The translations under genes and the position numbers were made by a program. DNA of 64,000 nt from Candidatus Poseidoniales archaeon (lineage in GTDB: Archaea; Thermoplasmatota; Poseidoniia; Poseidoniales; Poseidoniaceae), in the NCBI GenBank assembly GCA_038146705.1, contig JAYQSB010000002.1, positions 8,688 to 72,687 of the forward strand. The letters run 5' to 3'. Positions 5,420-61,184 of this stretch are shown in pieces. The notes beneath the pieces were generated by a model. The model saw nothing but the letters and a program-made list of their open reading frames with translations, had not been told where the DNA came from and did not search any database. How positions within the stretch are numbered: position 1 is the stretch's first letter; the number at the start of each line of letters is the position of its first letter.

Positions 5420-7849
5420 GTGAATCCTTACGACAATCCCTGCGAGATTTGTTCTTCACGGCAAACCGAAGAACATCATGAACATTGTGAACTTTGTTCA
5501 TCATTGTTGAAATCCAATATCAGAAAGGATTGGAACATCAAGATTGAACCGGATACCAGAGATGAAATCGTTCATTTGATGGCTGGTGCGAAACAAACCC
5601 CAACAAAATGGAGGCGACTTTCTCCGATGCTTGATATTCCCGAACTTCAATGGTTTAGATTGGATAGTGGTACAGACCCAATACACAAATTACCTTGTGA
5701 AGATGATGAGTTTAGTACTATCATCAATCTTAAATTTTCAGATGGCCCGTTGTGCAAAAAACAACAAGCAATACTCCGAAAGGGCGTTGAACTCCATGAC
5801 GGAACAGTTATTTCGATTCACGGTGAGGATTGTTTTATTGATCATTTTAAATTGGCGAAGGAGGTTCCGATTGGAATATTTTTCAAAATCATGTGCAATC
5901 CAATTGAACGAAAAGGATGGGATTTGAAACAATTTTTCTTAGCAGCCTCCGCTTTTGCTCCAAGCATTCATGAAGCTCGTGAGGAACGAATGTTTCATCA
6001 TCGATTTCAAGGACGCCGTCGACGTCGCACAGCAGGTGAAGAATCATTTTACGCCATGTTGCGATGGCTTGGAAGCAAGATTACTTGCTCCAGGGAAAAC
6101 GACGGTCTTTCGAGCAGTATCAACGCATGGGCATATGATGTGAATTCATTTTTCCAAAATAGAGAGCGAATGAGTTTCCCTCAAAACTATACAAATGCAA
6201 TTAAAAACATCCCCGATGGCTTAGAACACCTCTTTCCTGAACCTTGGGTTCAAGCATGGAATCAAGAGACAAATATTCATCATGAAGATGAAAATCAAGT
6301 TGCTCCGATTCGATTTTCAAAGGGTAAAGTCAAGGTAAAAGTGAAAAGGGCGGACGGCTCTAGTTTCTGGATTTCGGTTATTGAACATCCATTGCACATC
6401 GCGTTTGTTCTTTCAGCATGCTTTTATCCAGTCGACCATCCAGCGAGAAAATTATTTTCAGCACTCCAATCCATTTGGTTCAAAGATGACCACAAAAAGC
6501 CGATTACAGAAACCCCATTCGGAGTATCAGTCCAATTTCTTCAAGGTTGTCTTGATGTCGTAGGGGAAAATGCGGTTGTCCATCGTAATGCGATTTTGAT
6601 CCGAGGAAAGTTTGGTCATTACTATGAATTGAAATTGGGTTATGGAGCTCACGGTGCACCGTATCTCCTTCGACCTTTAGATTGTCAAGGAACGACTCTT
6701 CAGTACCGTGAATCGCTGTGCATTCATAATGGGCCTACGCAAAGAAGACTCCCTATTGGAGATACGATTGGCTCGGTGGTGATGAGTATTGCAAATGATG
6801 CAATTTCATCTCGCCTCGTTGATAGTCTTCGACACCACATCGTTCGAAATGGACCCCTCCTTCTTACACCAACAAACCAAGATGAATTTTTTCAACAACT
6901 TGACATGCCCGAATTTCATGATTTTGTGCGTCAACACCCCTTTCGCGGTCGGAATGATAGGCAGTTTGACGATCATGGAGAAATGAACAGAAGGCCGCGT
7001 TGGTTTCATCGAATTGATGCATCAAATCCTGAATTGACAAAGCAGTTGTCTTTAGTCCATATTAACGATCCGTTTGGAAGGTGGATGCAGAACAGAATTG
7101 GACGTCAACGACGAATAGGCGGCGATGGCGACGATTATGAAATGAAAAGAAAACAAGGAGTCCCTCGCACAACGATTGAAGAATTCACTCACCGAGAGGC
7201 AGTCCTTGCTTGGAAGAGGTTGGTTGACCAATCACTAAGAATGGACGAACAAGATGATGAAGGCGGAGTGAGAATAAACCGAGACAGACTTCGAGAACAT
7301 ATGGGCAGGTACATACAAAATCCCCCATTCATCCACGATATTTTCAGGAATAGAGAGACAAACAAACGAATACATGGGTGTGGTGACATCCGCGACGGAG
7401 AACGCCGGTGGTGTGAAACATTTGCAAGGGCGTGGGAATGTCTGCATCTTCAACCAATCGAATCAACCATCCAATTGCATGGAGTTGATACCAAATCCTT
7501 GGCTTTTCAACACTTCAGTCTCAAGATAACTATTCGAGACAAGGATGAGGAACGGTTTATTCAAAAGATTGCTGAACTTGTTGGTTACGAACTCCTTCTT
7601 GAAGATGAACAGAATCTCGTGATGATACGCAAGCGCCATCCAAGAGCAGATGCTCGTATTGAAGTCGCACGTATGTTGAATCAGCTCCAACAGAAGCAGG
7701 GAGCGGAGAAAGCACCACCTCGTTGGTGGAATTACATCGATAGAACCCATGCCCCAGAAGAGTTGGAGAAAGGGCGATGGCAACTCCATGAGGATTTACA
7801 AGACGACAAAAAAGGCGGGAAGGATTGGATTCGGTTTGAAGACTTGTAG
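5420..7849 (+). CDS. Large hypothetical protein (809 aa) with an N-terminal Cys/His cluster.
   Basis: GTG start. N-terminus reads CEICSS...HHEHCELCSS (zinc-ribbon-like). There is a basic RRRRR patch and a KGKVKVKVK low-complexity segment. No recognisable catalytic motif. Confidence 0.45.
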   Translation: MNPYDNPCEICSSRQTEEHHEHCELCSSLLKSNIRKDWNIKIEPDTRDEIVHLMAGAKQTPTKWRRLSPMLDIPELQWFRLDSGTDPIHKLPCEDDEFSTIINLKFSDGPLCKKQQAILRKGVELHDGTVISIHGEDCFIDHFKLAKEVPIGIFFKIMCNPIERKGWDLKQFFLAASAFAPSIHEAREERMFHHRFQGRRRRRTAGEESFYAMLRWLGSKITCSRENDGLSSSINAWAYDVNSFFQNRERMSFPQNYTNAIKNIPDGLEHLFPEPWVQAWNQETNIHHEDENQVAPIRFSKGKVKVKVKRADGSSFWISVIEHPLHIAFVLSACFYPVDHPARKLFSALQSIWFKDDHKKPITETPFGVSVQFLQGCLDVVGENAVVHRNAILIRGKFGHYYELKLGYGAHGAPYLLRPLDCQGTTLQYRESLCIHNGPTQRRLPIGDTIGSVVMSIANDAISSRLVDSLRHHIVRNGPLLLTPTNQDEFFQQLDMPEFHDFVRQHPFRGRNDRQFDDHGEMNRRPRWFHRIDASNPELTKQLSLVHINDPFGRWMQNRIGRQRRIGGDGDDYEMKRKQGVPRTTIEEFTHREAVLAWKRLVDQSLRMDEQDDEGGVRINRDRLREHMGRYIQNPPFIHDIFRNRETNKRIHGCGDIRDGERRWCETFARAWECLHLQPIESTIQLHGVDTKSLAFQHFSLKITIRDKDEERFIQKIAELVGYELLLEDEQNLVMIRKRHPRADARIEVARMLNQLQQKQGAEKAPPRWWNYIDRTHAPEELEKGRWQLHEDLQDDKKGGKDWIRFEDL

Positions 7850-7867
7850 ATATTGAATCATTCATGT

Positions 7868-8800
7868 TCAGTATCCATTCTTCCGGAGAACGAAGGCACA
7901 GAGAATAATCACGAGGAGCAAATCATTCAAATTGAGGAATGGCAAAGATTCATCTTCTTCTGATGTCGGCTTGTCATCGCTTTCGCAGCATTCTTCATTT
8001 TGAATCGCTGTGAATTCATACATAAGATGAATCTCAATATCATCATCATCAAATGCAGTAGGCGGTGTGAGGGTTGCTGTCCCGTTAAGATTGCTCCCTA
8101 ACGAATGAATTTCACGAACAATGTGCGGGTAGTACCCGAGCTGGTTTGAACCTTCCTCAAATGTAGCACCAGATTCTACAAACCATACTTGAACATCTAT
8201 GGTATAATTTTCCAAAACGAGTGCACTAAAATTGACGTTCCAAGCGACAACACCGACTTCACCTGATGGAGTCCAGGCAAAATCGGATGTACCTTCATTC
8301 AAACGTCGTGTTGAATTGGTGAGATGATCATAATCATCTTTTAACGAATCTCCGTCAGCAACACTTCCAACTTTCTTGAGATGCCCATTGAAAACGACAG
8401 TGGGCGGAATTCTCAGGCCGTATATTTCTTGCCATCGTTCATCGAGAACAACTGAGCCGAATGGGTCTTCAGTCTCTCCAATTGCTCTGTGAAAATGATA
8501 TTGTTGAAGGAAGGGAGCTGGGATTTCATCGAGTGCATGTTCCACATCGACACAATTCGTGCACCATGTCGCAGTGTAATCTTCGACCAAAGATGGTAAA
8601 TCATTGAAATGGTCTGTTTGTGTTGAGATATTCGTTGCATTTGTCCACTGCCCACCGAGGATGAAGCCATGGTCCAAGTCTTCTACAGGTGCTGCTTGAG
8701 TCGATGACATTGAACAGAGAAATGCAAATGTCACAACGACAACAATGAGCCTGCCCATGAGATTTGGACTTGCACCATGTGTTTGATTTTTACCCTTCAA
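7868..8800 (-). CDS. Secreted thioredoxin-fold protein with a WCxxC motif and a C-terminal membrane anchor.
   Basis: Signal peptide (LIVVVVTFAFLCSMSSTQAAP). Redox motif YTATWCTNCVDVE. A C-terminal acidic linker precedes a hydrophobic tail LLLVIILCAFVLRKNGY. Confidence 0.55.
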   Translation of the reverse strand: MKGKNQTHGASPNLMGRLIVVVVTFAFLCSMSSTQAAPVEDLDHGFILGGQWTNATNISTQTDHFNDLPSLVEDYTATWCTNCVDVEHALDEIPAPFLQQYHFHRAIGETEDPFGSVVLDERWQEIYGLRIPPTVVFNGHLKKVGSVADGDSLKDDYDHLTNSTRRLNEGTSDFAWTPSGEVGVVAWNVNFSALVLENYTIDVQVWFVESGATFEEGSNQLGYYPHIVREIHSLGSNLNGTATLTPPTAFDDDDIEIHLMYEFTAIQNEECCESDDKPTSEEDESLPFLNLNDLLLVIILCAFVLRKNGY

Positions 8801-10011
8801 TTATCAACGGCTTCAGTTGAATCTTGCCCATCAGAGCAAGAAGATTCGCTCAAGTTTGGAAGAATTGCTTCTATGAAAGCCTCTGGTAAGAGTTTACGGT
8901 CGTTTTCAACGAGGGAAATGAAATTCGCAAGCCCTTGGGCTGTCATCAAAATTGTATCGGCCAACATTGTGAGGTTTCGATGTCGCCCAACATGTGCCTC
9001 AAGTGAGAAGTAGACGAGCATGGCCATGATTTTCTTTGCAGGGTGGTTGGTTAATGGACCATCGATTGAAGGTTCTTTCAGCAAATTCATACGTCGTTGA
9101 ACATCGTTGTTGATGCTGTCTAGGACTTCATCACTATTACCTGCATCAAATAGAGCATCGAGAAGATCATTGAGTGCTTGTGTGAAGTCTTCGTCTCTGT
9201 TTGTCACACGGATTTCAACCACATTTCGCTCAGCAATATAGCGCAATCCGTTGCATCGAAGACCCAAACGAATTTGTGCTTTGAGACATTTGTCCACAAT
9301 AAGTCGAGCTTTGGTCACAAGTTCAAGAGGCAAATCAAGTGCTTGACGTCGATTGGCTAAATCAACTCGTTGAATCAACCCGAGGAGTGAACACCACTCA
9401 AGGATTGCCATAGCGAGAAGGTAATTGTTAAGGCGGCCTGCAGTAGACCCATTCTCGTCACCTTGGCGTTGAAAGAAGTCCTTTGAGATGCGGTTTGTAC
9501 TTTGAGCTACATTCTTGAGATTCTTCTCACGACGCCCAGATTTCTGTTGATGTTGTTTGATTGTTTGGAGGTCTTCTTCACTAAAAGGGATAATGCAGGC
9601 ATCGATAATACGTTCGATTCGAAACATGGTATCCTCACCAACAAGGTCAACAACAGCTTCTTTCACCTGTCGTAACTGAGGATTTCGTTCACGGACTTGC
9701 GTACGCTGTGTTCCAAAAATGTATGCTCTTCGAAGTTGACGATTCACAGCGCGGCCAGTGTGATCAACGCGGCTTTGTGATGGTTGAAAGGTCCCACCTA
9801 AATCAGCATTTGAGCTCACACGTTCGTGGGTTCGCTCATCGCCAAACAGACTTCCTCCGTTGTTAAATTCATCATTTTGAGACAGTGGCATAACAAAACC
9901 ACAGTCGAAACATACGCATTCAGCTTTTTCTTCTTCTTTGCGGAGGTTCGACCCGCCGCACATTTCACAATTATTTTCCATTTTTTTCACCTCGTGATGA
10001 ATGGTATTCAT
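8797..10011 (-). CDS. Zinc-ribbon protein with a TFB/TFIIB-like N-terminus. Divergent from canonical TFB; function uncertain.
   Basis: The N-terminus CEMCGGSNL...x15...CVCFDCGFV (C-x2-C-x15-C-x2-C) matches the TFB zinc-ribbon pattern. The rest is helical but has no clear cyclin-box conservation. The likely start is the internal ATG near 9981. Confidence 0.3.
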   Translation of the reverse strand: MNTIHHEVKKMENNCEMCGGSNLRKEEEKAECVCFDCGFVMPLSQNDEFNNGGSLFGDERTHERVSSNADLGGTFQPSQSRVDHTGRAVNRQLRRAYIFGTQRTQVRERNPQLRQVKEAVVDLVGEDTMFRIERIIDACIIPFSEEDLQTIKQHQQKSGRREKNLKNVAQSTNRISKDFFQRQGDENGSTAGRLNNYLLAMAILEWCSLLGLIQRVDLANRRQALDLPLELVTKARLIVDKCLKAQIRLGLRCNGLRYIAERNVVEIRVTNRDEDFTQALNDLLDALFDAGNSDEVLDSINNDVQRRMNLLKEPSIDGPLTNHPAKKIMAMLVYFSLEAHVGRHRNLTMLADTILMTAQGLANFISLVENDRKLLPEAFIEAILPNLSESSCSDGQDSTEAVDN

Positions 10012-10125
10012 GAATGAACTTCACACCAAAAAATACCGTTCGTTGCCCCCGACGACACCAAAACATGAATTTTATTCATATTGTTCATTTTCAGCCTAAT
10101 TATTACGGAAAAGGGTTGGTTTCGG

Positions 10126-10190
10126 CAGGGAATTTATACTATGTGGGCGGCAGTTTATAAACTTTGCGTATAATTTTCCACCTATAAAGC
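10126..10190. promoter_or_regulatory. AT-rich divergent promoter region with TATA-like boxes (ATTTATAC, TTTATAAA, CTATAAAG) between the zinc-ribbon gene and the AddB-like gene.
   Basis: A 300-nt intergenic gap between divergently oriented genes contains TTTATAAA at about 10154-10161, which matches the archaeal TATA consensus. Confidence 0.3.
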
Positions 10191-10310
10191 CAATTTAGAC
10201 ACCATAGAATGTTGTGAACTTCACATACGAGAGTCGGGACTCCACAGCGATTAATACTCACCATGGAATGTTATTAAACGCTCGCATCTGGTACTCAAAT
10301 ACGAAGGGAT

Positions 10311-13300
10311 GTGGAGTTTTTTTTGATATCATCGGAACCGGTTGAATTGGGACGAGGCGTCCCTAATTGGTTGTTTGATTCAATCGTTTCTGGGGCAATT
10401 TCCAATGTCTTGTTCATTCATCCGACAACAGAACACAGAAATGCTTTGATGACCCGTCTTCGATACGAAGACGTTACAACTCACCCAAATCACCATGTAA
10501 CATATGACGGACTCATTCGACAATTAGCAAGCGATCTACGACTTCATACTCCATTCGAAGACGATGTCGCATTACTCGAAAAAATCCACAATCTGCTTGA
10601 GAAACGAGCGAGTGAGTTTGCATTTCCCGTCCTGCACAATGGCGCTCACCCCTGGACATTTGCAAAGACTCAACGAATTATCAAAACGCTGAGGACGCTT
10701 TTGCAAGCGGAACTACCTTGGAATTGGGAGGCAAATCCGGGTTTTGAGGATGTATTGTCCGAGCTTCAAAAATTCGAGGAAACGCACCAGAAAATGATAC
10801 CATTCCTCACAGAATTTCATGTGAATGCTTCACTGAAAACTTTGGACAAACGACCTTTTCATCTCCAACTTGTTGATGGCGTCATCGTTCTGAATCACCC
10901 ACCAGATTATTCTCCAATACAAACATCAATTCTACAAAGATTATCTTCGTGGCTTCCTTTTCATCAATTGATTGCACAAGGCCAAATTCGCTTAGGTCAC
11001 CGTGGAAGTTCGATTCTAGACGCACATTTTGATTCAATCAATTCTCTTCCACTTGGACTCGATAAAATCGAGCGCGATAAACTCATGCATGATGGGTGGC
11101 AAACATCAAACGGCATTAGCCATTATCCATCCTTTCTTCGAATTCTTCTCGATGACAAAATGCAGACAATAGAATCAGTGTGCCAATTCATTTCAGAATA
11201 TTTACAGGAACATCAAGGCAAGATCATCATCATCGACCCATGCAAAGAAGATCATCACAATGCTTGGCGACATCATCTCACCATGATGGGCCTACCTGTT
11301 GGGCGTTCCGCAATTCCGATTCAACAAACTCCATTTGTTCAGCAACTCGTCGGTTTAGCAAGAATAGGATATGGTGTGCACGCTTGGTCTCTCAACCATC
11401 TTTTGAGGTTTGTTCACACAGTCGGCTTACCATTGAAAACCGATCTTTTTCCCGAACTCAAGCATCCACAAAATGAAGATTGGCGGCCAGTACTTCATCA
11501 CAATGTCCTGCAGAAATGCTCCACTATCCACCATGTTTTAGGCGGGCCAGGGGCGCTGGGACGATGGCGTGGCACATTGTCACAAATGCAACCCATCGAC
11601 TCGAGGCATGAGGTCATCACGAAGCAAGAAATCGAAGAAACCCTTTGGGCTCTTGCTTCAATTTCAAGATTAATGTCTCCTTTATTGTCATCAGAGGACC
11701 AATATGTTGCCCAAATAGAAGTTGAAGGCCCGATGAGTGAAACAGAATTACCTCTACCATCGAGCCCATCCAATGTGTTCGCATGGTTTGAAGAAATTCT
11801 TGAAAAAATAGATTGGGAAGAAATTGTTAGTGACCTCGACCAAGCAAATCATGAAGCCCAAGCATTGGAAAAATTTATCCTTGAAATTCGAAAGTTACAG
11901 TTGAGTATCCATACATCAACATGGTCGAAACTCACTCCGCATTGGTTTTTCGAAAGAATGACGTACATTTCGACTAAAATAAAAACAGATGCCAGCCAAG
12001 TGAATTCCGATTTGATTAAAATCATGACCCCTGAGCAAGCCTTTGGCCTTGAATGTGATTTGCTCATTCTCACGTTTATGGATTTAGAATCATGGTCGAT
12101 GAAACAACCAGTCATTCCTTGGTTGGATGAGTTCACGAAAAAAGAGCTTGGCTTTCTTTCGAACAGTTCAAAAATTCGACAAGGGCGTCATCACCTTCGT
12201 CATTTGTTGAATTGTTCCCCCTTCGCTTGTATTTTTGATGCTTCTTTAGAGGAGGGGGGTGAACCCGCAACACCTTTGGCCGAATGGTACGCTGAACTTA
12301 ATGAAGAGGAATTTACCAATCTCGCATCGCCTTTTGAATGGATGATGGAAAAAGGTAGCGATTCACTCTCATCGTATTGGGGGACGACGTACGATAAGAA
12401 GGACAATCTCCATTGGATTATTCCAAAACCTTTGCGAATTCATCAAGTCAAAGGTGCATATTTGATTGAAAAGCATGGCTCAAGTCAAAGAAACATACGC
12501 CAAAATGTTGGTCTCGAAGTAAAGTACGGGATGCAGCAAACCCAACCAATACATCGTAACAATTCATTTTTGCCAAGTTTGGAACGGGCACTGCACCAGG
12601 ATCGTATTTCGAGGCAACCCTCAAAAAATACCTTGACGAGGGGAGAAACGTTGTCTTGGGAATCCCGCAAGTACCGCACAACAATATCAGATTTGAAAGA
12701 GGGATTGAATCTTCTTCAAGCACATAAAGTGGAAGGTTTAGGAGGAGAATATCCGCATTTAGGGGTAAAAGGTGGGGGCAAAACCATCACACCGTACATC
12801 GACCCGCGACCACTCCCACCTGCCTTTGAATCACAACCAGAAATCGAACACTTTAGTGGTACAATTGAATCATCCTTAGAGCGAGAGCGTTGGTCACCTT
12901 CTCGACTTCAAACTTGGATAGAGTGCCCCCGTAAAGGTTGGGCAAAACAATTTCTCAACGTTGAGGATGCTCCATCAGAACTTGAGGAAGACATCAATGC
13001 AATCATGCGAGGAGATATGGTGCATGAGGTCCTGGCCCACATCCTTAATGGTCATGGTGTTGTTGCATATGATGGGGAGGTGAAAGAACCAACTCCACTC
13101 CATGAAGGACCAATTTCGAACCCGATTGATGGATGGATGCGAGCCCTAGAATTTCTTGCTACAAATGTGACATGGTTAGAATTAGATTTTGCTATCTCCG
13201 TGCATCGATGTCGAAGCCTCATTGGTTCAACTCCGGAAGCATGGCGCCAATATCTGGAAGGAAAAGTGACTCTGCAACCTCAAGGAAGTTTGGGCGATTT

Positions 13301-14030
13301 AATTCAGAAAACGTACGACTTATCTTCCTGTGCACCGATTGCAGTTGAATGGCCAGTCTCTGATGGAGAGTCAAGCCATGTGAAGATACTGGAAAAGTCG
13401 GATTTGGAACTTTGTGTGAATGGATTTGCTGATCGTGTCGATATATTCATCCCATCAGAAGAATTGGAAGACGCACTTATCGATGAAGGATTCATCGATG
13501 AAAAACAGTTTGATGAACCCTTCCCAATGCAATATATCGACCAACAACGTTCTGCTCAGAGATATGTCATCATTCGAGATTTCAAAACGGTGAATGGTCC
13601 TAAATCTGACAACATTGGGAACCGTCATTTCAAAGGATTAGTTCGTGAAGTACAACTTGCACTCTATGCAAGAGCATGGGAAATTACGCATCCAAACGAC
13701 AGGGTTATTGGCGTAGGCATTAGTGAAGTTGGTGAATGGACTGAACATTATGTCGAAATTGACACAACTGCTTTTCCCCACGGCATTCAAATCAATGGAA
13801 TTGGAAAGCAGACGAATATTTTGAGTCGGCTTTATCCTTCGTCAATTGATGCAGAGAATGTATCTTCTCCATTTCGTGTATGGATGAACGAACGCATTGA
13901 GACGGCCATGAGGGTCATTGAGACGGCATCGAATGGATATGTGAATCCGACACCCGGCCGCCATTGTTCATATTGTCCAATCAACACTGTTTGTACATTG
14001 TTTGACCTAGCGGGGGGTGAACTGAATTGA
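10311..14030 (+). CDS. AddB/RecC-like subunit of a helicase-nuclease complex: inactive helicase scaffold plus a C-terminal RecB-family nuclease with an Fe-S cluster.
   Basis: 1239 aa with a GTG start and no Walker A motif. C-terminal nuclease motifs: CPRKGWAKQFL (first Cys), GDMVHEVLAH, FADRVDIF, IIRDFKTV (D-x-K), QLALYARAW (QxxxY) and CSYCPINTVC (Cys3). This matches the AddB/Cas4 iron-staple nuclease architecture. Confidence 0.65.
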   Translation: MEFFLISSEPVELGRGVPNWLFDSIVSGAISNVLFIHPTTEHRNALMTRLRYEDVTTHPNHHVTYDGLIRQLASDLRLHTPFEDDVALLEKIHNLLEKRASEFAFPVLHNGAHPWTFAKTQRIIKTLRTLLQAELPWNWEANPGFEDVLSELQKFEETHQKMIPFLTEFHVNASLKTLDKRPFHLQLVDGVIVLNHPPDYSPIQTSILQRLSSWLPFHQLIAQGQIRLGHRGSSILDAHFDSINSLPLGLDKIERDKLMHDGWQTSNGISHYPSFLRILLDDKMQTIESVCQFISEYLQEHQGKIIIIDPCKEDHHNAWRHHLTMMGLPVGRSAIPIQQTPFVQQLVGLARIGYGVHAWSLNHLLRFVHTVGLPLKTDLFPELKHPQNEDWRPVLHHNVLQKCSTIHHVLGGPGALGRWRGTLSQMQPIDSRHEVITKQEIEETLWALASISRLMSPLLSSEDQYVAQIEVEGPMSETELPLPSSPSNVFAWFEEILEKIDWEEIVSDLDQANHEAQALEKFILEIRKLQLSIHTSTWSKLTPHWFFERMTYISTKIKTDASQVNSDLIKIMTPEQAFGLECDLLILTFMDLESWSMKQPVIPWLDEFTKKELGFLSNSSKIRQGRHHLRHLLNCSPFACIFDASLEEGGEPATPLAEWYAELNEEEFTNLASPFEWMMEKGSDSLSSYWGTTYDKKDNLHWIIPKPLRIHQVKGAYLIEKHGSSQRNIRQNVGLEVKYGMQQTQPIHRNNSFLPSLERALHQDRISRQPSKNTLTRGETLSWESRKYRTTISDLKEGLNLLQAHKVEGLGGEYPHLGVKGGGKTITPYIDPRPLPPAFESQPEIEHFSGTIESSLERERWSPSRLQTWIECPRKGWAKQFLNVEDAPSELEEDINAIMRGDMVHEVLAHILNGHGVVAYDGEVKEPTPLHEGPISNPIDGWMRALEFLATNVTWLELDFAISVHRCRSLIGSTPEAWRQYLEGKVTLQPQGSLGDLIQKTYDLSSCAPIAVEWPVSDGESSHVKILEKSDLELCVNGFADRVDIFIPSEELEDALIDEGFIDEKQFDEPFPMQYIDQQRSAQRYVIIRDFKTVNGPKSDNIGNRHFKGLVREVQLALYARAWEITHPNDRVIGVGISEVGEWTEHYVEIDTTAFPHGIQINGIGKQTNILSRLYPSSIDAENVSSPFRVWMNERIETAMRVIETASNGYVNPTPGRHCSYCPINTVCTLFDLAGGELN

Positions 14031-17000
14031 CCCAATTTAACAACAGCCAACGTCTTGGTTTAGATATCGATAAGCACATTGCACTCGATGCGGGTGCAGG
14101 CACTGGGAAAACAACGGTGATGGCTCAACGATACATTCAACATTTGTTGTCACCAATCCAAAGAGCAACAATAGCGACGCTTCCAGGTCCACGTGAAGCC
14201 TTGCGGTCCGCTGACTCTCTCAAGTCTTCAAAACAATCGAGAACACATCCAAAACACTGGCTAGGTTTGCTTCCGGCAGAGGTTGCTGCAATTACCTTCA
14301 CACGTAAGGCCGCAGCAGAATTAAAGGGACGGATTCGAAATGTTCTTTCAACGCTATCGGATACATCAACAGCGGGTAAAAACGCTGTTTTTGACCCTCG
14401 ACTCCAAAAGAGTGGAGATGTGGAAATGCTCTTATCAGAGCTTGATAATGCACCTATTTCCACAATTGATAGTTTTCTTAGTCAACTTGTTCAACCATAC
14501 CTTGACCTCGTTGCAATCACGCCTCCTATTGAGCAGATTTCCGAGGAATTGTCCCAAATTTTGATTCTCGAAACCTTGAGTAGTATTTGGCGAATGCGTC
14601 ATGTTGATGATGCCTTAGAAGCAGGTTTGCTTGAGAACCCAATTGAATTTCTTGAAGCAAGGGATCGCTTAACCGTGCGATTAGGAGGTCAAGCAAACGC
14701 TGCAATTGTGATTCAAGGATTAATGTCGAAATCGATGTTTGTCGAAGAGGCGTATCGAAATTTGATGCGACGAGCCGAAGAGAAAGGCATTGAATTCCAT
14801 TCACAACAATCTGAATCAGTTCAGTTGCTGTTCGATATCATGCTGGATACGTTTAATGAAAACAAACTCGATGAGTTTACTGAAGTTCTTCATCAAATCT
14901 TAGAGAATTGGGTTGACAATTTCCGAGCCTACCCCTCCCAGTGTATTCCTTCAGGGCCAACATTTTCACAATCTCGAATGCATCATCTCATTCATCTCGT
15001 GGAAAACCCCTCTCATCAAAATCCATTGGATAAATTACGCTGGATTTGGCGAGTGTGCCTATCCATTTCCAGTTTCTCAAGTTTATCGAGTGGAAAACCG
15101 TCATTTTTCCCTCGAGGCAATTTACCTCATGATGAATGGGTCGCTGGATTATTCAAGAAAGGGGAATCAACCTTTTCAGACAAGGAACTAAAGAATCAAA
15201 CCTATAGCAAAGGTGTTGAATATTCCGATGCAATCAAAGAGCATTTGAACCACCAAGAACACTCAATTTTTCTATTACTTGCCCGGTGTATTTTCACAAT
15301 TCAACCAGGTGATGGATATTCATTCATGCCTTCGAACGCAAAATCGTATCTATACGGTTTAGAAAAAGACATCCCAACAGGCCATGAACATCTGAATCAT
15401 TATGTTTCAGAGCAACTACAAATGGATGTTATGCAAGATTTATTTTTCATTCACAAAGGTGCACATCAAATCCATTCGCACAGAAAATCAATAGACGGAT
15501 TCAATGATTTCGACGATATCCTCAGGTTTGCTTCTGATTTGCTGCTCACCCGATGCCCAGATATCTGTCGTCAAATGTACCCTAATGAAGCGGTTGAAGC
15601 ATTGGATTCGATGACATCGGAACCTTGGAAAGATGCACACATCGCAAGGGCACTCACCATTTTGCATGATAATGAACGCTGTCGAAGCGATTTACTTCAC
15701 AGATTTCAGATTTTGCAGAATCTTCGTCGGCAGTTTAGAGCGTTTATCATCGATGAGTATCAAGACACGAACCCTAGTCATGCCCGTCTTCTTTCCAGAC
15801 TATGGGGACGAAGATTGAAACTTTCCGACGAATCAGAAACAGACGATTGGTATTGGGACCCAACAATTTGCATTGTCGGGGACATGAAACAGAGTATCTA
15901 TCGTTTTCGACAAGCAGAAGTCTCTGTGATGAGAGATATGGTTGAACAAATTCGAAGTGCGAATCGTCAAGAATATTCCAATCCTAGTCTCCAAGATTTG
16001 CGAAAAGAAGACCATGGAAGAGATCCAAGACCAGTTGGTGACGGGGCATCTGGAATTGCATTTACCAATAAACACGATGATAAGCAAAAAAGTGCACCAC
16101 ATACATACATACATTTTGCTGCAGGTGATGACGAGGAAGGGAAATTCATCACAGACCTAGACCGAATTCAACGTCGTCGGGAAGGTCATATCGATATGAC
16201 AACAAATTATCGAACAAATTCACATCTCCTTGAATTCATGAACGATGTTTTTGATGATGTGTTTTCATCACGTCACGAAACGATTGTGGGTAATTGGTAC
16301 GCTGAACCTCAGCGATTACGTCCAGGTAAGAATCAATCAGGTGGACATTTAGAATGGTTGGTGCCTATTCAAACACATCTTGAGCAAGCGAGTGTTGACA
16401 TGAAAAAGGCATTTGACCCATTCCTCGATGCACGCTCTTCAGTCAAACAACTTGAGAATGAACTCATTGCCCAAAGAATTGAAGCTCTACTTTCAGGGCA
16501 ACAAACTCGAGTTTGGGATACTGAAAATCTTGAATGGATAGACATTGTTGATGGTTCAATTTATCAACCCAGTGATGTCATGGTTCTCTTCCATGCCCGC
16601 ACACATGTGGCAGATTTAATTCAAAGGTTAGGCCATAGGGGAATTCCAGCAGTATCGGATAAACAAGGGGCTTTGCTGCACCAGCCAGTAATACAACCTT
16701 TGATATCAATGCTTGAACTTGTCTCGAATCCTGAATCGAAAAGAGCATTGTTTGGAGTCTTACGCTCACCTTTGGTTGGATTGACGGACGACGAAATCCA
16801 TGAAATTTTTAATTCAAAACTCGAGAATGATTTATTTTCATGTTTTGATTCTGAAATCTTTTCCGGTCCAATCAGGAAGATGTTTGTCGATGTGAATTCC
16901 TTACGAATTAAAGGGCGAATCGAGGATGCATTTGCCTACCTTATCGATTATTCAGACCTACTCGTAGTGCATTCAACAGAATCAGAACGAAATCATGTTG

Positions 17001-18931
17001 AATCATGGTGTGAATTATTAAAAACGACTCTCGCCGAAAATGGTTACAATATTCTTGCAGCCCAAAGACACATGAATGCATTGAAAGATCTTGGTAAAAA
17101 AGGACCACCTGCGGAATCATCTTCGTCATCAAATGCAGTCCAAATTATGACATTACACAAATCAAAAGGTTTGCAAGCAAAAGTCATTATTGTGGCAGGA
17201 ATGTTTGACGCAGGTCAACGAGATGCCTCACAATCAGTACAAGATAACGTGCTGGTAACACCTCAAGTTGTTGCAGGTCGAATTCAACCATGGACTGACC
17301 ATGACCGCCCTCACGATGGATTGTGGGAATTTACGAAAGCGATTGATGATGCTCAAGGTCGTGCTGAACGGCGTCGACAACTCTATGTTGCACTTACAAG
17401 GGCCGAAGAGCGTCTAATTTTTGTCGGCTCACCCAGCAGCATGGGGTCATACGATGAGGACTCAAAGTGCTTTAAAATCAAGCGAAGTCAAAGCACTCGC
17501 TCTTTTGGAAATATGCTGATTGATGCCTTACGTCATGTAGCAAAACGTGGTGCTGACGCCGAATCTCCATGGTTACTCGAGGGTGATCTGAATGCAAATA
17601 TTTTACCTCCAATGGATGATAGCCCCATTTATCTTAATCCAAAAGAATTGCTCATTGGTTCTACATTCCACACATCTGCAGTCCAATCTCTCCGCGTCTA
17701 TCACCATCCCGATTGTTTCCAAACGAAGCAACCTGACTCAGTGATGCAACAATCAATTGATTTGTTTGATAAAATAGTTCAGTCGATGGACCAAAAAGAG
17801 AGCAAGAAGAAAATTCCTCAATTCAAGATTGACTTGAAAGGAGCTGCCTACGACATCGATACATCGTTTCGCTGCCCACGAAGATATTGGCTAAGCCAAG
17901 TGCTCGGTTGGCACACTGAACCTCTCTTTCTTCGTCAAAATGACATGCAAGAAGCCTCATCCAACTTTCCAAATCCTCGCGAATTTGGATTGATAATGCA
18001 CAGATTGTTGGAGGTGGGGCTACCAAATCCAATCAACATCAGTGAGAATACAGCAAATCTTTCGGTCGAATGGCATATTGAAAATGAGAATAAGCTGCTC
18101 GATGTCGATACCATCGAATCAGTACTTTCCGAGTATGGAATCACGAAAGAAAACAAGAAATTTGATTCGACAAAGAATCGCATTCTCGCCATTTCCGAAT
18201 TATTTGAACGTCAAAAATTAGGTTTGCTTTTGAAAGGCAAAGAAATGAATGGTTTGTTTGCTGAGGGTTTGAGAACAGAACTCCCTATTCGGCATATTCA
18301 TCATTTTGGAGATTTACGTCTCGAGTTGACTCGATCAACTCCATTCGGTGACCAGATCGATGCTGTTGTCGATGAAGCATCGATGATTTTTGAAGGAAGA
18401 ATAGACCTTGTCATTGCATTAAGAGATAAGAAAAACAATGGCTACCTTCAGGTTGTTGATTTGAAAACAAAAGGTTGTCTTGATGATTTTTCCATCGACA
18501 TGATTAACCCACATCCTCTTCAAGTCATCGATGAAGACTCAATGCACCCAATGCCAACAACATTAGCAGAAGAAGAGCTGCTTCAATCCTACCGATTGCA
18601 ACTAACGCTTTATTCAATGGCGTTAGAGTCCATCGAATCAAGAAAACCAAATCATATGCGAAGAAGAATACTTCCACCTGCCATTTTAGTTGGGGCCTCA
18701 GGCAGAATGATCGAACTCACCTCTGAACAATATGAACAAGCGAAAAATGATTTGAGCCAGCATCTTGAATGGCGAACGAAGGTCAACGCAGCACCAGGAG
18801 TTGTTCAGACACCCGACCGCCTTGATTCAGGAGAAGAATGTATGTCTTGTCCGTTTTTCCGAGGACATGTTCGCCGATGTGGGCCAACATCCGAACCATT
18901 AGGACTTATCTTGCCTGAGCAACGAGAATGA
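14027..18931 (+). CDS. AddA/AdnB-like UvrD-family (SF1A) helicase with a C-terminal RecB-family nuclease carrying Fe-S cysteines.
   Basis: SF1A helicase motifs in order: Walker A DAGAGTGKTT, Ia ITFTRKAAAELKGRI, II FIIDEYQDTNP, III IVGDMKQSIYRFRQAEV, V MTLHKSKGLQAKVIIV, VI LYVALTRAEERLIFVG. C-terminal nuclease: FRCPRRYW, IDLVIALRD, VVDLKTK, QLTLYSMAL, CMSCPFFRGHVRRC. TTG start overlaps the upstream stop (TTGA). Confidence 0.75.
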   Translation: MTQFNNSQRLGLDIDKHIALDAGAGTGKTTVMAQRYIQHLLSPIQRATIATLPGPREALRSADSLKSSKQSRTHPKHWLGLLPAEVAAITFTRKAAAELKGRIRNVLSTLSDTSTAGKNAVFDPRLQKSGDVEMLLSELDNAPISTIDSFLSQLVQPYLDLVAITPPIEQISEELSQILILETLSSIWRMRHVDDALEAGLLENPIEFLEARDRLTVRLGGQANAAIVIQGLMSKSMFVEEAYRNLMRRAEEKGIEFHSQQSESVQLLFDIMLDTFNENKLDEFTEVLHQILENWVDNFRAYPSQCIPSGPTFSQSRMHHLIHLVENPSHQNPLDKLRWIWRVCLSISSFSSLSSGKPSFFPRGNLPHDEWVAGLFKKGESTFSDKELKNQTYSKGVEYSDAIKEHLNHQEHSIFLLLARCIFTIQPGDGYSFMPSNAKSYLYGLEKDIPTGHEHLNHYVSEQLQMDVMQDLFFIHKGAHQIHSHRKSIDGFNDFDDILRFASDLLLTRCPDICRQMYPNEAVEALDSMTSEPWKDAHIARALTILHDNERCRSDLLHRFQILQNLRRQFRAFIIDEYQDTNPSHARLLSRLWGRRLKLSDESETDDWYWDPTICIVGDMKQSIYRFRQAEVSVMRDMVEQIRSANRQEYSNPSLQDLRKEDHGRDPRPVGDGASGIAFTNKHDDKQKSAPHTYIHFAAGDDEEGKFITDLDRIQRRREGHIDMTTNYRTNSHLLEFMNDVFDDVFSSRHETIVGNWYAEPQRLRPGKNQSGGHLEWLVPIQTHLEQASVDMKKAFDPFLDARSSVKQLENELIAQRIEALLSGQQTRVWDTENLEWIDIVDGSIYQPSDVMVLFHARTHVADLIQRLGHRGIPAVSDKQGALLHQPVIQPLISMLELVSNPESKRALFGVLRSPLVGLTDDEIHEIFNSKLENDLFSCFDSEIFSGPIRKMFVDVNSLRIKGRIEDAFAYLIDYSDLLVVHSTESERNHVESWCELLKTTLAENGYNILAAQRHMNALKDLGKKGPPAESSSSSNAVQIMTLHKSKGLQAKVIIVAGMFDAGQRDASQSVQDNVLVTPQVVAGRIQPWTDHDRPHDGLWEFTKAIDDAQGRAERRRQLYVALTRAEERLIFVGSPSSMGSYDEDSKCFKIKRSQSTRSFGNMLIDALRHVAKRGADAESPWLLEGDLNANILPPMDDSPIYLNPKELLIGSTFHTSAVQSLRVYHHPDCFQTKQPDSVMQQSIDLFDKIVQSMDQKESKKKIPQFKIDLKGAAYDIDTSFRCPRRYWLSQVLGWHTEPLFLRQNDMQEASSNFPNPREFGLIMHRLLEVGLPNPINISENTANLSVEWHIENENKLLDVDTIESVLSEYGITKENKKFDSTKNRILAISELFERQKLGLLLKGKEMNGLFAEGLRTELPIRHIHHFGDLRLELTRSTPFGDQIDAVVDEASMIFEGRIDLVIALRDKKNNGYLQVVDLKTKGCLDDFSIDMINPHPLQVIDEDSMHPMPTTLAEEELLQSYRLQLTLYSMALESIESRKPNHMRRRILPPAILVGASGRMIELTSEQYEQAKNDLSQHLEWRTKVNAAPGVVQTPDRLDSGEECMSCPFFRGHVRRCGPTSEPLGLILPEQRE

Positions 18932-19523
18932 GTGTCCCTGCCCAACCGTCTTTTGCCCCAGCACGCAGAGAAATTACATTTTCAAAACCAATCTCACGAA
19001 GGGAATCTTGCCATTCTTCTTCACTCATTGTGGTCATATGAACATTTAATTTCTCAGGCCAAGAATGACTCGATTCGTTTTCAGTGTAGTGGTCTATGCC
19101 AAATATAAGCCAGCCTCCAGAGGCAATCCAATCTGTAGAGATGTTGCGAAGAAATTGTTTCGGATTTTCGAGATAATACATGAATTCCATGCTCATGACA
19201 AGGTCAAATTTCTCTTCCGGAATCCATCCAGGAAGTTGTGCATGGACATACTCGCCCTCGGGATCAATGTCCCTCGCTTTTGCAATCATCTCCTCAGCAC
19301 CATCAATTCCAGTAGCGTGAACACATGAATCGAATGAAAGTAATTTACGTACAACCCACCCATTTCCACAACCAATGTCAATCGCTTTGAACGGTTTTTC
19401 CATACGATGAATCGCTTGCTCTAACATAACTGAAACTGACGCAGCGTGCCCTTCTTCCATTCCAACATCTTTACCGATTTTTGCCCATTCAGAAAAGACA
19501 TCAGTCGCTTTTTTTAAGCCCAT
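18906..19523 (-). CDS. Class I SAM-dependent methyltransferase.
   Basis: Motif I AIDIGCGNGWVVRKL. The Rossmann-fold pattern is typical of small-molecule/Methyltransf_11-type enzymes. Confidence 0.65.
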   Translation of the reverse strand: MGLKKATDVFSEWAKIGKDVGMEEGHAASVSVMLEQAIHRMEKPFKAIDIGCGNGWVVRKLLSFDSCVHATGIDGAEEMIAKARDIDPEGEYVHAQLPGWIPEEKFDLVMSMEFMYYLENPKQFLRNISTDWIASGGWLIFGIDHYTENESSHSWPEKLNVHMTTMSEEEWQDSLREIGFENVISLRAGAKDGWAGTLILVAQAR

Positions 19524-53500: not shown

Positions 53501-54094
53501 GGAGATGTACTCCCAAATTCCGGTTTGGGAGATTTTTTCAGATTTTTGAAGAATCAATCCGAAAATGGGAAAATATTCCTACATGTTCCTGAGGTAATAC
53601 GTGAAGAATTGAGCATGTTTGGCGACCCTCGTCGGTTGGAGCGTCAGATGAATTTGAAATCAATGCTATCAAAATCAAATAACAATGAAATTACCACTGA
53701 GTTCCTCAAAGAAAAGATTGCAGAAGTCATCGATGCGTTTTCAACATGGAATGAAGCTGAATATATTGAAAAAGTTGAAGATGTTGTTACGCCAGAATTA
53801 GAAGAATTCTTTGTGCAGCATCATGAAGTGTTTGAAGAAATATCATCTGTAAAACAAAAATATGGGGCAACCACACCCAGAACAAAAATTGCTGGAAAAC
53901 AATACTATCCTGAAGAGAACGATATGCATCTGCTCCACTACGCAAAAGCGGTTTCCAATTTAGCTTCGAAAGGTATTGGTGTAGTCCTCATCGCATCGTA
54001 CGACAATGACTTCACGTTTATCTCTAGAGCCCTCGAAGAAACATTCGGCATCTCCGTTGTACGAAATCCAAGGACATTGACCGACTGGTTGTAG
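50591..54094 (+). CDS. Large (1167 aa) helical protein with a C-terminal PIN-like nuclease domain carrying a long insert.
   Basis: PIN acidic residues: KPLVVVDTNILINAL (D1), PEVIREEL (E), EENDMHLLHYA (D) and VVLIASYDNDFTF (D4). The N-terminal 900 aa is alpha-helical repeat-like with no motif. Confidence 0.5.
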   Translation: MIELRMEQCLKSVLGAPKLKRLRMAVRSPTWELIDKPHKGILSFAMNEEEVPSDNDDQQNQPSHMRTKGRRLRNKSRGQSTVMSPQEYLPELNEIQQFELSSASTLAILLIRKQMNDPDWNDEFESLEMFMRNDCLENGVHPVWHTIAEKTNYLTQFLAFPKVRPKSESTTKKFDPKKATINPADSSQVALLLSHALETTIDANLQVAMNRLIGQLQSSSGQSVKIEQILFSLEDSLQYLSIILKFHSQDDITESNIEFLNAQKSGVAKNLLRYSEFQSNNFSNWAEVIELPGNNELERMLLEMVWMNLPDEAAELSSQHIDKGIALIQELQQSKAQIDKLKWWKMSALQREGQGGIALEVLQDLAITSFTDIDALLNFLMIFPAEKTSQWVLKFIDEIDIDGLSAILVSDHYEGELQILIAQRIFDSHGFEFEQERSYLLKAFISGLDFERLTKIFHSDAMYCFSYPYDALFCYHATPASLSVNSEKQFHDLRMHALQSLTDSSRPDYISDSVEELLLLMEGIQLDSDALMKTLGNKVYIDFQPVINALQQGISEVNIQQPKLQALKLRLSGINTLTPLESRLFNVLFSTIAMNNTRQAFHNRMETPEQKKDMAMIVNEPFFTLTILQTIQELVLDYDLGIPELVDWYQKYSPSSPWQTLSRAANHVQKDEQLNAAREYKRVADQIHTVRVDSDDRKNSAEEVMYYVQQGIFGIEQEIALYRKALIHYAHAGHWAEALDLLENNPSLKSALTKRFQLYLQVSNLADNQQTGPATRLIVNHVLSSITEEDQSGEGMRTRETYDEEELETLRSYTTNHAVHLPDKPFNGRVIAAHTELSRKLSRHRDEFERRFQMLEKESKFDFIEVYELAKEASNASPLTGLKILERAQHHRTLDTIGRQKLKDAEITLFKNHEEKIPLKHRSQLRQLNLKPLVVVDTNILINALIEEVYTHLGIIAGHQRKTMNQLDSSGDVLPNSGLGDFFRFLKNQSENGKIFLHVPEVIREELSMFGDPRRLERQMNLKSMLSKSNNNEITTEFLKEKIAEVIDAFSTWNEAEYIEKVEDVVTPELEEFFVQHHEVFEEISSVKQKYGATTPRTKIAGKQYYPEENDMHLLHYAKAVSNLASKGIGVVLIASYDNDFTFISRALEETFGISVVRNPRTLTDWL

Positions 54095-60076: not shown

Positions 60077-60211
60077 ACGACATCGGTCATTTGTATATGA
60101 AGAATGAAAAGACAGTTCGGACATTTCACCGTAAGAATATGCAAACAACTGTGTCTTAGTAGCCTTATTTTTCACTTTCAGTTCATTTTTACAGTCAGTT
60201 AAAGTGAAGAA

Positions 60212-61106: not shown

Positions 61107-61184
61107 AGCGAGGTGGGGTAGTCTGGATATCCCGTCGGGCTCATAACCCGGAGATCGATGGTTCAAATCCATCCCTCGCTACCA
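61107..61184 (+). tRNA. tRNA-Met (CAT), initiator type, with genomically encoded CCA.
   Basis: Cloverleaf by hand: acceptor AGCGAGG/CCTCGCT (A1:U72), D-loop with GG, anticodon stem TCGGG/CCCGG with three consecutive G:C, loop CU-CAU-AA, T-arm GATGG-TTCAAAT-CCATC, discriminator A, then CCA. Confidence 0.85.

Follow-up and report, generated by a model that had tools for sequence, protein, structure and literature searches.

The two giant genes analyzed here probably encode an AddAB-type heterodimeric helicase-nuclease that serves Marine Group II and its close relatives as a core, vertically inherited chromosomal function. An initial annotation of the 64,000-nucleotide stretch of Candidatus Poseidoniales DNA that contains them (the window) had proposed a two-gene helicase-nuclease of the AddAB type, and this proposal is borne out by the motif set, by AddA as the best match of the second protein and by the AddB-like fold of the first.

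The AddB-like subunit gene (ORF1, 10311..14030, + strand) starts with GTG and encodes 1239 aa, consisting of an inactivated SF1 helicase-like body and a C-terminal RecB-family nuclease with a putative iron staple; the AddA-like subunit gene (ORF2, 14027..18931, + strand) starts with TTG and encodes 1634 aa, consisting of an active SF1A motor and a C-terminal nuclease of the RecB family that bears four Cys. The genes share a 4-nt TTGA start/stop overlap (14027..14030, + strand; the junction reads ...AAT TGA, with the TTG at 14027) indicative of translational coupling, and the coordinates and lengths originally reported for the coupled genes proved exact. Wherever the sequence sufficed, which was the case for 57 related loci, the AddB-like gene is directly followed by the AddA-like gene, a constant order, and in 43 of 57 related species the upstream stop is overlapped by an ATG, GTG or TTG (1 or 4 nt). 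The intergenic region between ORF1 and a divergent 404-aa zinc-ribbon gene (10012..10310, no strand assigned) is presumed to be a promoter region based on a sequence reading, in which A/T-rich TATA-like boxes were noted at approximately 10133-10190. A bacterial-type scan upstream of ORF1 detected neither a sigma-70-type promoter nor an intrinsic terminator, as expected in an archaeon.

The motor region of ORF2 (aa 1-1140, 14027..17446, + strand) could be aligned at the residue level with AddA and AdnB, and its motif residues were invariant across 58 species. These comprise, all on the + strand, the Walker A motif AGAGTGKTT read from the sequence (aa 22-30, nt 14090-14116), TFTRKAA, DEYQDT (aa 576-581, nt 15752-15769), GDMKQSIYRFR (aa 618-628, nt 15878-15910), motif IV (N727/R729), and motif V (T1042..KGLQ) together with motif VI (YVALTRA, 1120-1126) at approximately nt 17150-17404. 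The nuclease domain (17834..18928, + strand) carries H1325, D1460, D1478-x-K1480 and Q1525xxxY1529, with the catalytic residues retained in 58/58 species. The combination that characterizes AddA, a complete set of SF1A (UvrD/PcrA) motifs with an intact D...D-x-K...QxxxY nuclease, was therefore found in every one of the 58 species, and the Pfam matches (UvrD-helicase, UvrD_C and PDDEXK_1) agree with the original description of ORF2 as a full UvrD/PcrA-type motor with a C-terminal RecB-family nuclease.

Profile searches, which the initial annotation had recommended, also placed ORF2 closest to AddA. Among the NCBIfam models, addA_Gpos scored highest (198 bits), followed by recB (133) and addA_alphas (130), and addA_Gpos was the top model for all 12 family members tested. 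A profile of the ORF2 family searched against the PDB returned AddA (3u44_A, E 1.3e-34) ahead of AdnB (6e-18) and RecB (7e-15). The scores nevertheless lie under the curated AddA cut-offs (198 vs 708 bits for TIGR02785 and 130 vs 861 for TIGR02784). In an AF2 model of the ORF2 nuclease domain (pLDDT 81.7), the top fold matches were AdnA, in first place, and the nuclease domains of AddB, AddA, Dna2 and ACE1/Cas4.

ORF1 presents the complementary picture of a helicase-like fold without motor motifs, followed by a RecB-family nuclease, which is the architecture that characterizes AddB. Its helicase-like region (aa 1-860, 10311..12890, + strand) has no Walker A motif, and its fold aligns with the helicase-like domains of AddB, AdnA and RecC. 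GKT is absent throughout the protein; the P-loop position instead reads [LIV][HY]P[NTS]E..R in 58/58 species, and the Walker-B-like strand (IIIIDP) retains the Asp alone, the Walker-B Glu being missing in the same 58/58. The nuclease domain (12891..14027, + strand) is intact, with H905, D1041/D1044, D1090-x-K1092 and Q1115xxxY1119 and with catalytic residues conserved in all 58 species; the earlier claim that ORF1 lacks Walker A yet ends in the same kind of nuclease as ORF2 thus stands. PDDEXK_1 was the Pfam match in ORF1, and weak Cas4 matches were obtained at its C-terminus.

The assignment of ORF1 as AddB-like, likewise made at the outset, is supported by the predicted fold and by weak sequence links to the alpha-type AddB. 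In the fold ranking, AddB was first, AdnA second and RecC the third class, with Dna2 also among the matches; the structure prediction used an alignment of 40 database proteins, and the model stops short of the C-terminal CxxCx5C tail of ORF1, a protein that extends 39 aa beyond 1200 aa. At the sequence level, TIGR02786 (addB_alphas) was matched by 17 of 40 family members, with a best E of 7e-14 and with the non-nuclease region included; for example, aa 532-658 of family member P0133 align to model positions 564-689, and this protein, the sole member with a bit score given, reached 27.8 bits against a cut-off of 486.5. ORF1 of this locus itself had no match to the AddB models TIGR02773 and TIGR02786, and its relatives also remained far under the cut-offs. 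Because the curated AddA and AddB cut-offs were missed, the gene pair represents a divergent AddAB lineage and not an equivalog.

The divergence of ORF1 was also apparent in the wider searches. Sequence and profile comparisons of ORF1 with the PDB returned no AddB, AdnA or RecC, only a spurious GshAB match and a marginal Cas4 match, and an hhalign comparison of the ORF1 and ORF2 families produced a single match (6% probability) at helicase motif V. When 1.84 billion cluster representatives were searched with a profile of the ORF1 helicase-like region, only 206 proteins were recovered; the 150 matches listed were proteins of about 1200 aa or short pieces consistent with family membership, and among these listed matches no relatives of the helicase-like part were detected outside the family. 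In public records, the AddB-like protein is labeled just as 'PD-(D/E)XK nuclease family protein' or 'hypothetical'.

Both nuclease domains carry the cysteines of an iron-sulfur staple. In ORF1 these are C872 (nt 12924-12926), conserved in 58/58 species, and C1219-x2-C1222-x5-C1228 (nt 13965-13994), conserved in 55/58, whereas in ORF2 they are C1283 (nt 17873-17875) and C1605-x2-C1608-x9-C1618 (nt 18839-18880), conserved in 57, 57, 54 and 53 of 58 species, respectively (all + strand). This arrangement, with one Cys before and three after the catalytic core, predicts that a [4Fe-4S] cluster fastens each of the two nuclease domains. The arrangement, recognized initially on both subunits, is kept across the family, and all eight Cys are present in 51/58 species; the remaining 7/58 have lost cluster Cys on one subunit or the other, and the clusters are therefore not universally required. 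In the characterized AddAB and AdnAB enzymes, the Fe-S cluster is confined to the AddB/AdnA subunit (PMC3378879; PMC13000450). The earlier remark that a double staple is atypical, given a cluster on AddB alone in B. subtilis, agrees with this literature (PMC3378879), and the Fe-S-type Cys in the sequence of the motor subunit set the pair apart from both characterized enzymes.

Among known systems, the closest counterpart is B. subtilis AddAB (PDB 3U44/3U4Q/4CEH-J), which was the top sequence match for ORF2 and the top fold match for ORF1. It is likewise a two-gene operon in the order addB-addA, with one active SF1A motor (AddA) and a RecB-type nuclease on each subunit, and its AddB is likewise helicase-shaped, does not act as a motor and has an iron staple of the form C...CxxCx5C. 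The differences are that its identity to ORF1 is only about 11%, that ORF2 exceeds B. subtilis AddA by approximately 400 aa, with insertions of unassigned role, and that the host is an archaeon using RadA. Additionally, B. subtilis AddB retains Walker A, which is absent from ORF1. No cluster has been reported for the AddA nuclease (PMC3378879), whereas ORF2 has four conserved Cys in the arrangement C...CxxCx9C. The alphaproteobacterial-type AddAB (TIGR02784 addA_alphas/TIGR02786 addB_alphas) supplies the sole AddB model matched by family sequences, but ORF2 prefers the Gram-positive AddA model (198 vs 130 bits). The alpha-type AddB likewise is not known to have an ATP-binding motif.

E. coli RecBCD is alike in its overall task, and its inactive, helicase-shaped RecC subunit serves as a Chi-scanning scaffold; RecBCD differs in comprising three subunits, with just one nuclease among them and with RecD as a second motor. 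The identification of the pair as RecBCD was rejected, as no recD-like gene was found in this locus or in the related loci and the nuclease residues of ORF1 are all intact, whereas the nuclease-like domain of RecC is dead. The archaeal Mre11-Rad50/HerA-NurA machinery has a presumed task that is alike, 5' resection giving RadA a 3' tail, but it is built from an SMC-like ATPase, a phosphoesterase, a hexameric FtsK-like translocase and an RNase-H-like nuclease, none of them related to the pair.

The surroundings of the pair are archaeal, as had been described: RadA (59045-60175, - strand), the C-terminal part of GatE (3-1160) and a tRNA-Met with A1:U72 (61107-61184) were all confirmed within the window, which also contains an FtsZ gene, and Pth2 is present in the corresponding block of related loci. 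The partner recombinase is RadA and not RecA, which counts against the AddAB reading. The SAM methyltransferase convergent to the pair was found where expected (18906-19523, - strand); it is of a small-molecule type and is not consistently adjacent to the pair in related loci. For the divergent 404-aa gene, described initially as a zinc-ribbon TFB-like gene, the N-terminal zinc ribbon is present, but likeness to TFB was not established (TFIIB zinc-ribbon match, E = 0.081).

The AddB-like protein is encoded by at least 141 GTDB species representatives, and all 80 listed contigs carrying it are Poseidoniales-type; both Poseidoniales families are represented, with member cluster P0155 including a protein annotated as Candidatus Thalassarchaeaceae. 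A common synteny, in which MCM-GatE-PTH2 precede the pair and PS decarboxylase-radical SAM follow it, extends to distant relatives, even one with 71% GC. Sequence identity changes in parallel for the two genes and in step with species divergence (88/89, 59/68, ~34/44 and ~31/39%), the dN/dS relative to the nearest relative was approximately 0.09 for both, and the pair is indistinguishable in GC content from its flanks and the rest of the window. Both genes are under strong purifying selection. No relatives of the pair were found in 2.9 million viral contigs, and a tblastn search of plasmids with ORF2 returned partial UvrD-like matches alone, at about 25% identity and mostly from Thermus and haloarchaeal plasmids, a result that is uninformative about a donor. 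Combined, these results identify the pair as order-wide, syntenic, vertically inherited core genes of Poseidoniales and their relatives. Based on the order-wide spread, conserved synteny, host-like GC, low dN/dS, and the lack of viral relatives and of any match to a defence-specific model, the pair is anciently fixed and is neither a recent transfer nor a defence island. The distribution comes close to that of a euryarchaeal clade with wide vertical inheritance, the finding that the initial annotation had set against its own reading. A literature search returned no paper describing such a clade, nor any that connects Marine Group II with AddAB, RecB or UvrD-nuclease genes.

The alternative that fares best, though still an unlikely one, is that the pair defends against viruses or plasmids, as a module in which a UvrD helicase-Cas4-like nuclease fusion works with an accessory nuclease towards invader destruction over chromosome repair. 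Bacterial RecBCD and AddAB degrade phage DNA too, which counts for such a role, as do the resemblance of both nuclease folds to Cas4/ACE1 and the methyltransferase adjoining the pair. UvrD-Cas4-like fusions that likewise combine a helicase with an iron-sulfur Cas4-like nuclease in a single polypeptide occur in bacteria and mesophilic archaea and have been proposed as defence components (Hudaiberdiev et al. 2017, PMC5704561), but these are single genes in variable contexts, often with restriction-modification or Dcm genes, whereas ORF2 is always paired and coupled with its AddB-like partner. In every lineage examined, moreover, the pair lies in a conserved housekeeping block (MCM, GatE, PTH2 and PS decarboxylase), unlike defence islands, its occurrence is nearly universal, and purifying selection on it is strong; the methyltransferase, being of a small-molecule type and inconsistently adjacent, does not help the defence explanation either. 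In PADLOC, ORF2 has many matches to GajB, the Gabija helicase, but these are generic UvrD-domain matches of at most 68 bits, compared to 198 bits for AddA. Gabija itself (GajA/GajB) was discarded, as these models match the conserved helicase motifs only and no GajA-like gene is present. With generic PADLOC matches and no viral relatives, the earlier suggestion of a defence-related helicase-nuclease has no specific support.

It is very unlikely that the complex is mainly replication-associated, reversing forks or processing flaps, for example, as the iron-staple helicase-nuclease Dna2 does, and not devoted to double-strand-break resection. Dna2 ranks high by fold for the ORF2 nuclease domain and also occurs in the ORF1 match list, which is consistent with such a role, as is the location of MCM within the conserved block in relatives. 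However, Dna2 is a single SF1B chain with an N-terminal nuclease, the whole-protein matches point to AddA and AddB, and several unrelated genes separate MCM from the pair.

Even less probable is an AdnAB-type enzyme, the actinobacterial form, which has an ATP-binding motor domain and a nuclease on both subunits. Mycobacterial AdnAB (PDB 6PPJ/7SJR/9NP6) shares with the pair a nuclease on each subunit and an iron-sulfur subdomain in the AddB-equivalent, and it was the second-best structural match: AdnA ranked second for the fold of ORF1 and first for the ORF2 nuclease domain, while AdnB was the second-best PDB sequence match of ORF2. Against this, AdnA keeps Walker A/B and binds nucleotide (PMC3321194; PMC13000450), whereas ORF1 has neither motif in 58/58 species, Fe-S has been reported in AdnA alone (PMC13000450), and whole-protein comparisons always favored AddA/AddB over AdnB/AdnA. 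The likeness to AdnAB raised by the initial annotation is accordingly not sustained.

That the genes were acquired horizontally in recent times, or stem from bacterial contamination of an archaeal assembly, is scarcely credible: the architecture is typical of bacteria, addAB transfer to archaea has been suggested (Cromie 2009, as cited in PMC2887965), and two related contigs are labeled as bacterial MAGs (L018 and L070), but both of these carry the archaeal block and are therefore probably mis-binned, the archaeal synteny is identical in at least 57 species and in deep relatives, the GC matches that of the flanks, the parallel identities of the two genes follow species divergence, and no relatives of the ORF1 helicase-like part were detected beyond its own family in the listed matches. 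The initial annotation's suggestion of horizontal acquisition from bacteria is thus contradicted for a sporadic or recent event by the order-wide synteny (57 loci) and host-like composition, while an ancient bacterial origin stays plausible; no donor was identified.

Returning to the AddAB-type heterodimer, a working mechanism for the Poseidoniales pair can be proposed by analogy with B. subtilis AddAB, for which the canonical mechanism and the role of the Fe-S cluster have been described (PMC3321194, PMC3378879). The complex would bind a dsDNA end, and the AddA-like subunit (1634 aa), as the sole motor, would use its intact SF1A ATPase to translocate 3'->5' on one strand while its C-terminal RecB-type nuclease cuts that same strand. 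Lacking both the P-loop Gly-Lys-Thr and the Walker-B Glu, the AddB-like subunit (1239 aa) would neither bind nor hydrolyze ATP. Its helicase-shaped scaffold may instead thread the unwound 3' strand and, as suggested by B. subtilis AddB, could be a ssDNA-scanning module or a candidate site for Chi-like sequence recognition, while its iron-staple nuclease would cut the 5' strand. We know of no Chi-like sequence for Poseidoniales. RadA, the archaeal recombinase, would thereby be provided with a 3' single-stranded tail, and unprotected linear DNA would be degraded.

More tentatively, a bacterial-type AddAB may have been fixed in the common ancestor of Poseidoniales and their high-GC relatives and have become the principal end-resection machine, supplying RadA and replacing HerA-NurA/Mre11-Rad50 or making them redundant; under this possible scenario, the enzyme would have taken a form without precedent among characterized systems, with a staple on both nucleases, that of the motor subunit included, and with an ATP-blind AddB that has drifted beyond sequence recognition in its helicase-like body and may respond to a Chi-like signal specific to the lineage.

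A motor subunit that bears a putative iron-staple nuclease would give enzymologists a new comparison point, and the natural lineages without the Cys on one subunit or the other bear on the role of the Fe-S cluster in AddB, Dna2 and Cas4. If the pair is a core AddAB-type enzyme, the order would start homologous recombination with bacterial-style machinery coupled to a eukaryote-like RadA, a natural hybrid pathway that raises the questions of how the hand-off to RadA would proceed, whether a Chi-like regulatory sequence exists in Poseidoniales genomes, and whether the archaeal HerA-NurA has been lost.

The pair consists of an AddB-like gene, ORF1 (10311..14030, forward strand, GTG start, 1239 aa), and an AddA-like gene, ORF2 (14027..18931, forward strand, TTG start, 1634 aa). 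The two meet at AAT-TGA, with the TTG beginning at 14027 and start and stop overlapping in TTGA; on re-reading of the sequence, the coordinates, lengths and overlap in the initial annotation matched exactly. ORF2 contains the helicase motifs Walker A AGAGTGKTT, TFTRKAA, DEYQDT, GDMKQSIYRFR and motifs IV, V and VI, followed by the nuclease residues C1283...H1325...D1460...D1478-x-K1480...Q1525xxxY1529...C1605xxC1608x9C1618. ORF1 carries the nuclease residues C872...H905...D1041/D1044...D1090-x-K1092...Q1115xxxY1119...C1219xxC1222x5C1228. All motifs previously listed for both ORFs were found in the claimed order. Pfam matches for ORF2 were UvrD-helicase (E 6.5e-35), UvrD_C and PDDEXK_1, and the sole match for ORF1 was PDDEXK_1 at the C-terminus (E 2.6e-13); no P-loop was found in ORF1, in agreement with its description as a protein lacking Walker A but ending in a nuclease.

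The best NCBI curated model for the AddA-like protein was Gram-positive AddA in all 12 members tested (198 bits for ORF2), ahead of RecB (133 bits), alpha-type AddA (130 bits) and then epsilon-type RecB-like, PcrA and UvrD models, with scores in these 12 members below the trusted cut-off of every curated model matched. Among solved structures, the ORF2 family profile matched B. subtilis AddA best (E 1.3e-34), followed by AdnB (6e-18) and RecB (7e-15); the proposed UvrD-type motor with a C-terminal RecB-family nuclease is therefore supported by Pfam, curated models and PDB matches. By residue alignment, the surplus of 400 aa relative to AddA is spread over four places: about +130 between motifs Ib and II, about +70 after motif III, about +150 in the linker and nuclease region, and the N-terminus. 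The predicted model of residues 1181-1634 (pLDDT 81.7) was nearest in fold to the nuclease domains of AdnA, AddB, AddA, Dna2 and the Cas4-family ACE1, most of these matches being iron-sulfur nucleases.

A search of the PDB with ORF1 gave no AddB, AdnA or RecC match, and neither did one with a 40-sequence profile. Searching 1.84 billion cluster representatives with a profile built on residues 1-860 gave only 206 proteins; those listed, 150 of them, were about 1200 aa long or were short pieces, which fits members of the family and their fragments. Sequence methods give little information on the ORF1 of the window; the predicted structure was decisive for its AddB-like identity. The top match of the model of residues 1-1200 (pLDDT 85.8, pTM 0.70) was chain B, AddB, in crystal structures of AddAB with DNA (Foldseek E 1.6e-18 to 4e-16), with a TM of about 0.5 over the full length. 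Across the family, 17 of 40 members match the alphaproteobacterial AddB model (best E 7e-14); the match of one member, P0133, pairs aa 532-658 with model positions 564-689, in the helicase-like part and outside the nuclease. Profile-profile comparison of the subunits weakly aligned ORF1 562-591 to helicase motif V of ORF2. Judged by its residues, ORF1 cannot be an ATPase, because all 58 species have [LIV][HY]P[NTS]E..R at the P-loop position and Asp-Pro closes the Walker-B-like strand.

Across the 58 species, no residue varies in the ORF2 helicase motifs or in either nuclease catalytic set. One cysteine before and three after the catalytic core were found on both subunits, as claimed, and all eight are present in 51 of the species. 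In L037, L040 and L047, the three C-terminal cysteines of the AddB-like protein are replaced (Tyr, Ser/Gly, Tyr; Y-x2-[SG]-x5-Y), with the first cysteine and all catalytic residues retained; L047 has lost the AddA-like cysteines as well. In four further species (L052, L055, L059, L078) the AddA-like C-terminus is shortened and its last two cysteines are missing. The ORF1 spacing, CxxCx5C, is the classical AddB/Cas4/Dna2 spacing, and that of ORF2, CxxCx9C, lies inside a conserved block, C-x2-C-P-[FY]-x2-G-x-[VI]-[RK]-x-C. Dna2 carries a helicase and an iron-staple nuclease on one chain, as do UvrD-Cas4-like fusions (PMC5704561). Because the cluster has been reported in AddB only for characterised AddAB (PMC3378879) and in AdnA only for characterised AdnAB (PMC13000450), a predicted cluster on the motor subunit appears atypical relative to these enzymes.

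The surroundings are archaeal, as initially annotated: the window encodes RadA (59045-60175, reverse strand), the C-terminal part of GatE (3-1160) and an initiator-type tRNA-Met with A1:U72, in addition to FtsZ. In the databases, relatives of the two proteins go under the names 'Candidatus Poseidoniales' or 'Poseidoniaceae archaeon', and the window therefore derives from a Marine Group II archaeon; the nearest species representative (L001) has 88-89% identity in both proteins. In a protein search, ORF2-like proteins of ~1630-1665 aa and 40-91% identity occupied the top 120 clusters. When GTDB species, each represented by one genome, were scanned with ORF1-family patterns, at least 141 matched stretches were confirmed as encoding an ORF1 relative, of which 80, representing 79 distinct loci, were kept. 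All 80 listed relatives are on Poseidoniales-type contigs, among which is the original MG-II assembly, CM001443.1. Two loci filed as 'Verrucomicrobiales bacterium' (L018, NZEQ01000040.1) and 'Salipiger bermudensis' (L070, CAXQWT010000040.1) carry the archaeal AddB-like/AddA-like block, including upstream ORFs of 790 and 777 aa, and are probably mis-binned Poseidoniales contigs.

In 57/57 loci with enough sequence, an AddB-like ORF (1201-1250 aa) is directly followed by an AddA-like ORF (1609-1695 aa), and in 43 of these a start codon shares 1 or 4 nt with the stop of the preceding ORF. Identities to the window drop in parallel for ORF1 and ORF2 (88/89, 59/68, about 34/44 and about 31/39%). The pair is kept in the most divergent members, P0172 (3.0-Mb contig, locus 71% GC), P0181 and P0168, and the P0155 cluster contains a member annotated Thalassarchaeaceae. 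The loci of P0172, P0181 and P0168 have in common the neighbourhood MCM-GatE-...-PTH2-...-pair-...-Rce1-like-PS decarboxylase-radical SAM; of these genes, the window has GatE on the upstream side of the pair and PS decarboxylase and radical SAM on the downstream side. At L080 (ENA ERZ26167216, 3.0-Mb contig, 10001-18168) the pair (1164 and 1558 aa) has all motifs, all eight cysteines and the same synteny in a locus of 71% GC vs ~43% in the window, extending the family past typical marine Poseidoniales. Against the nearest relative, dN/dS was 0.09 for each gene, and no relative of the pair was found among 2.9 million viral contigs. Given the order-wide distribution, fixed synteny, parallel identities, low dN/dS and lack of viral relatives, the pair is an old, vertically inherited core feature of the lineage.

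An ancient acquisition from bacteria is plausible: the architecture is otherwise bacterial, addAB transfer into archaea was suggested earlier (Cromie 2009, as cited in PMC2887965), and the gains inferred for the Poseidoniales ancestor amount to 392 gene families, bacterial-type coxA among them (PMC9287336). The suggested defence role gained no specific support, as PADLOC returned only generic GajB helicase matches (at most 68 bits) and Cas4 C-terminal matches, the locus is a housekeeping block, and the adjoining methyltransferase is of small-molecule type and not a constant neighbour across loci; breaking down linear DNA of foreign origin would still come naturally to such an enzyme as a side activity, as it does to RecBCD. 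Recent horizontal acquisition, also suggested initially, or contamination is contradicted by the host-like GC (0.42-0.44 across the pair, equal to the remainder of the window), the archaeal context and the order-wide syntenic distribution that includes divergent members.

The convergent SAM-methyltransferase gene was found as described, its 3' end overlapping that of the AddA-like gene by 26 nt (18906-18931); methyltransferase genes also lie 3' of the pair in L081 and L082 and are absent there in L080 and L083. The divergent 404-aa protein (8797-10011, reverse strand) has the expected N-terminal zinc ribbon (CxxC...CxCxxC), but the label 'TFB-like' is unproven, with E = 0.081 only against the TFIIB zinc-ribbon. 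The overlapping downstream 310-aa gene (7868-8800, reverse strand) had no family match. Neither Pfam nor PADLOC gave a match for an 809-aa ORF (5420-7849, forward strand), which encodes a conserved protein of unknown function; most of the 79 related loci have an ORF of ~765-877 aa at the equivalent place, ~2.4 kb upstream of their AddB-like gene. Elsewhere are a giant uncharacterised 2774-aa ORF (31568-39892, reverse strand), a giant 1167-aa ORF without Pfam match (50591-54094, forward strand) and a 661-aa protein with a C-terminal EF-hand pair (24879-26864, forward strand), in keeping with calcium-binding families that PMC9258230 reports to be Poseidoniaceae-specific (MGIIa).

RecC resembles ORF1 in being a non-ATPase subunit, and AdnA, unlike ORF1, keeps both Walker motifs (PMC3321194); readings of the pair as AdnAB or RecBCD failed on the defining features of those systems. 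By architecture, the pair is most likely an AddAB-type end-processing enzyme with a single motor and two nucleases. By analogy with homologous enzymes, from which the complex, clusters, strand assignment and steps are all inferred, ORF2 would drive 3'->5' translocation and cut the tracking strand, and ORF1 would supply an inactive channel of helicase shape, the part of B. subtilis AddB that scans for Chi (PMC3321194), together with the 5'-strand nuclease, its Fe-S subdomain placed at the fork. RadA, itself encoded in the window, would receive the resulting 3' tail.

A literature search found no paper describing this gene pair in Marine Group II, and public labels are 'PD-(D/E)XK nuclease family protein', 'hypothetical', 'UvrD-helicase domain-containing protein' and 'exodeoxyribonuclease V beta subunit'. 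The kind of system is well known and the pair is not a new category; the variant is worth recording and testing, and combines four features: it occurs order-wide in an archaeon, routine sequence searches do not recognise its AddB-like subunit, that subunit lacks Walker A, and iron-staple cysteines are present on both subunits.
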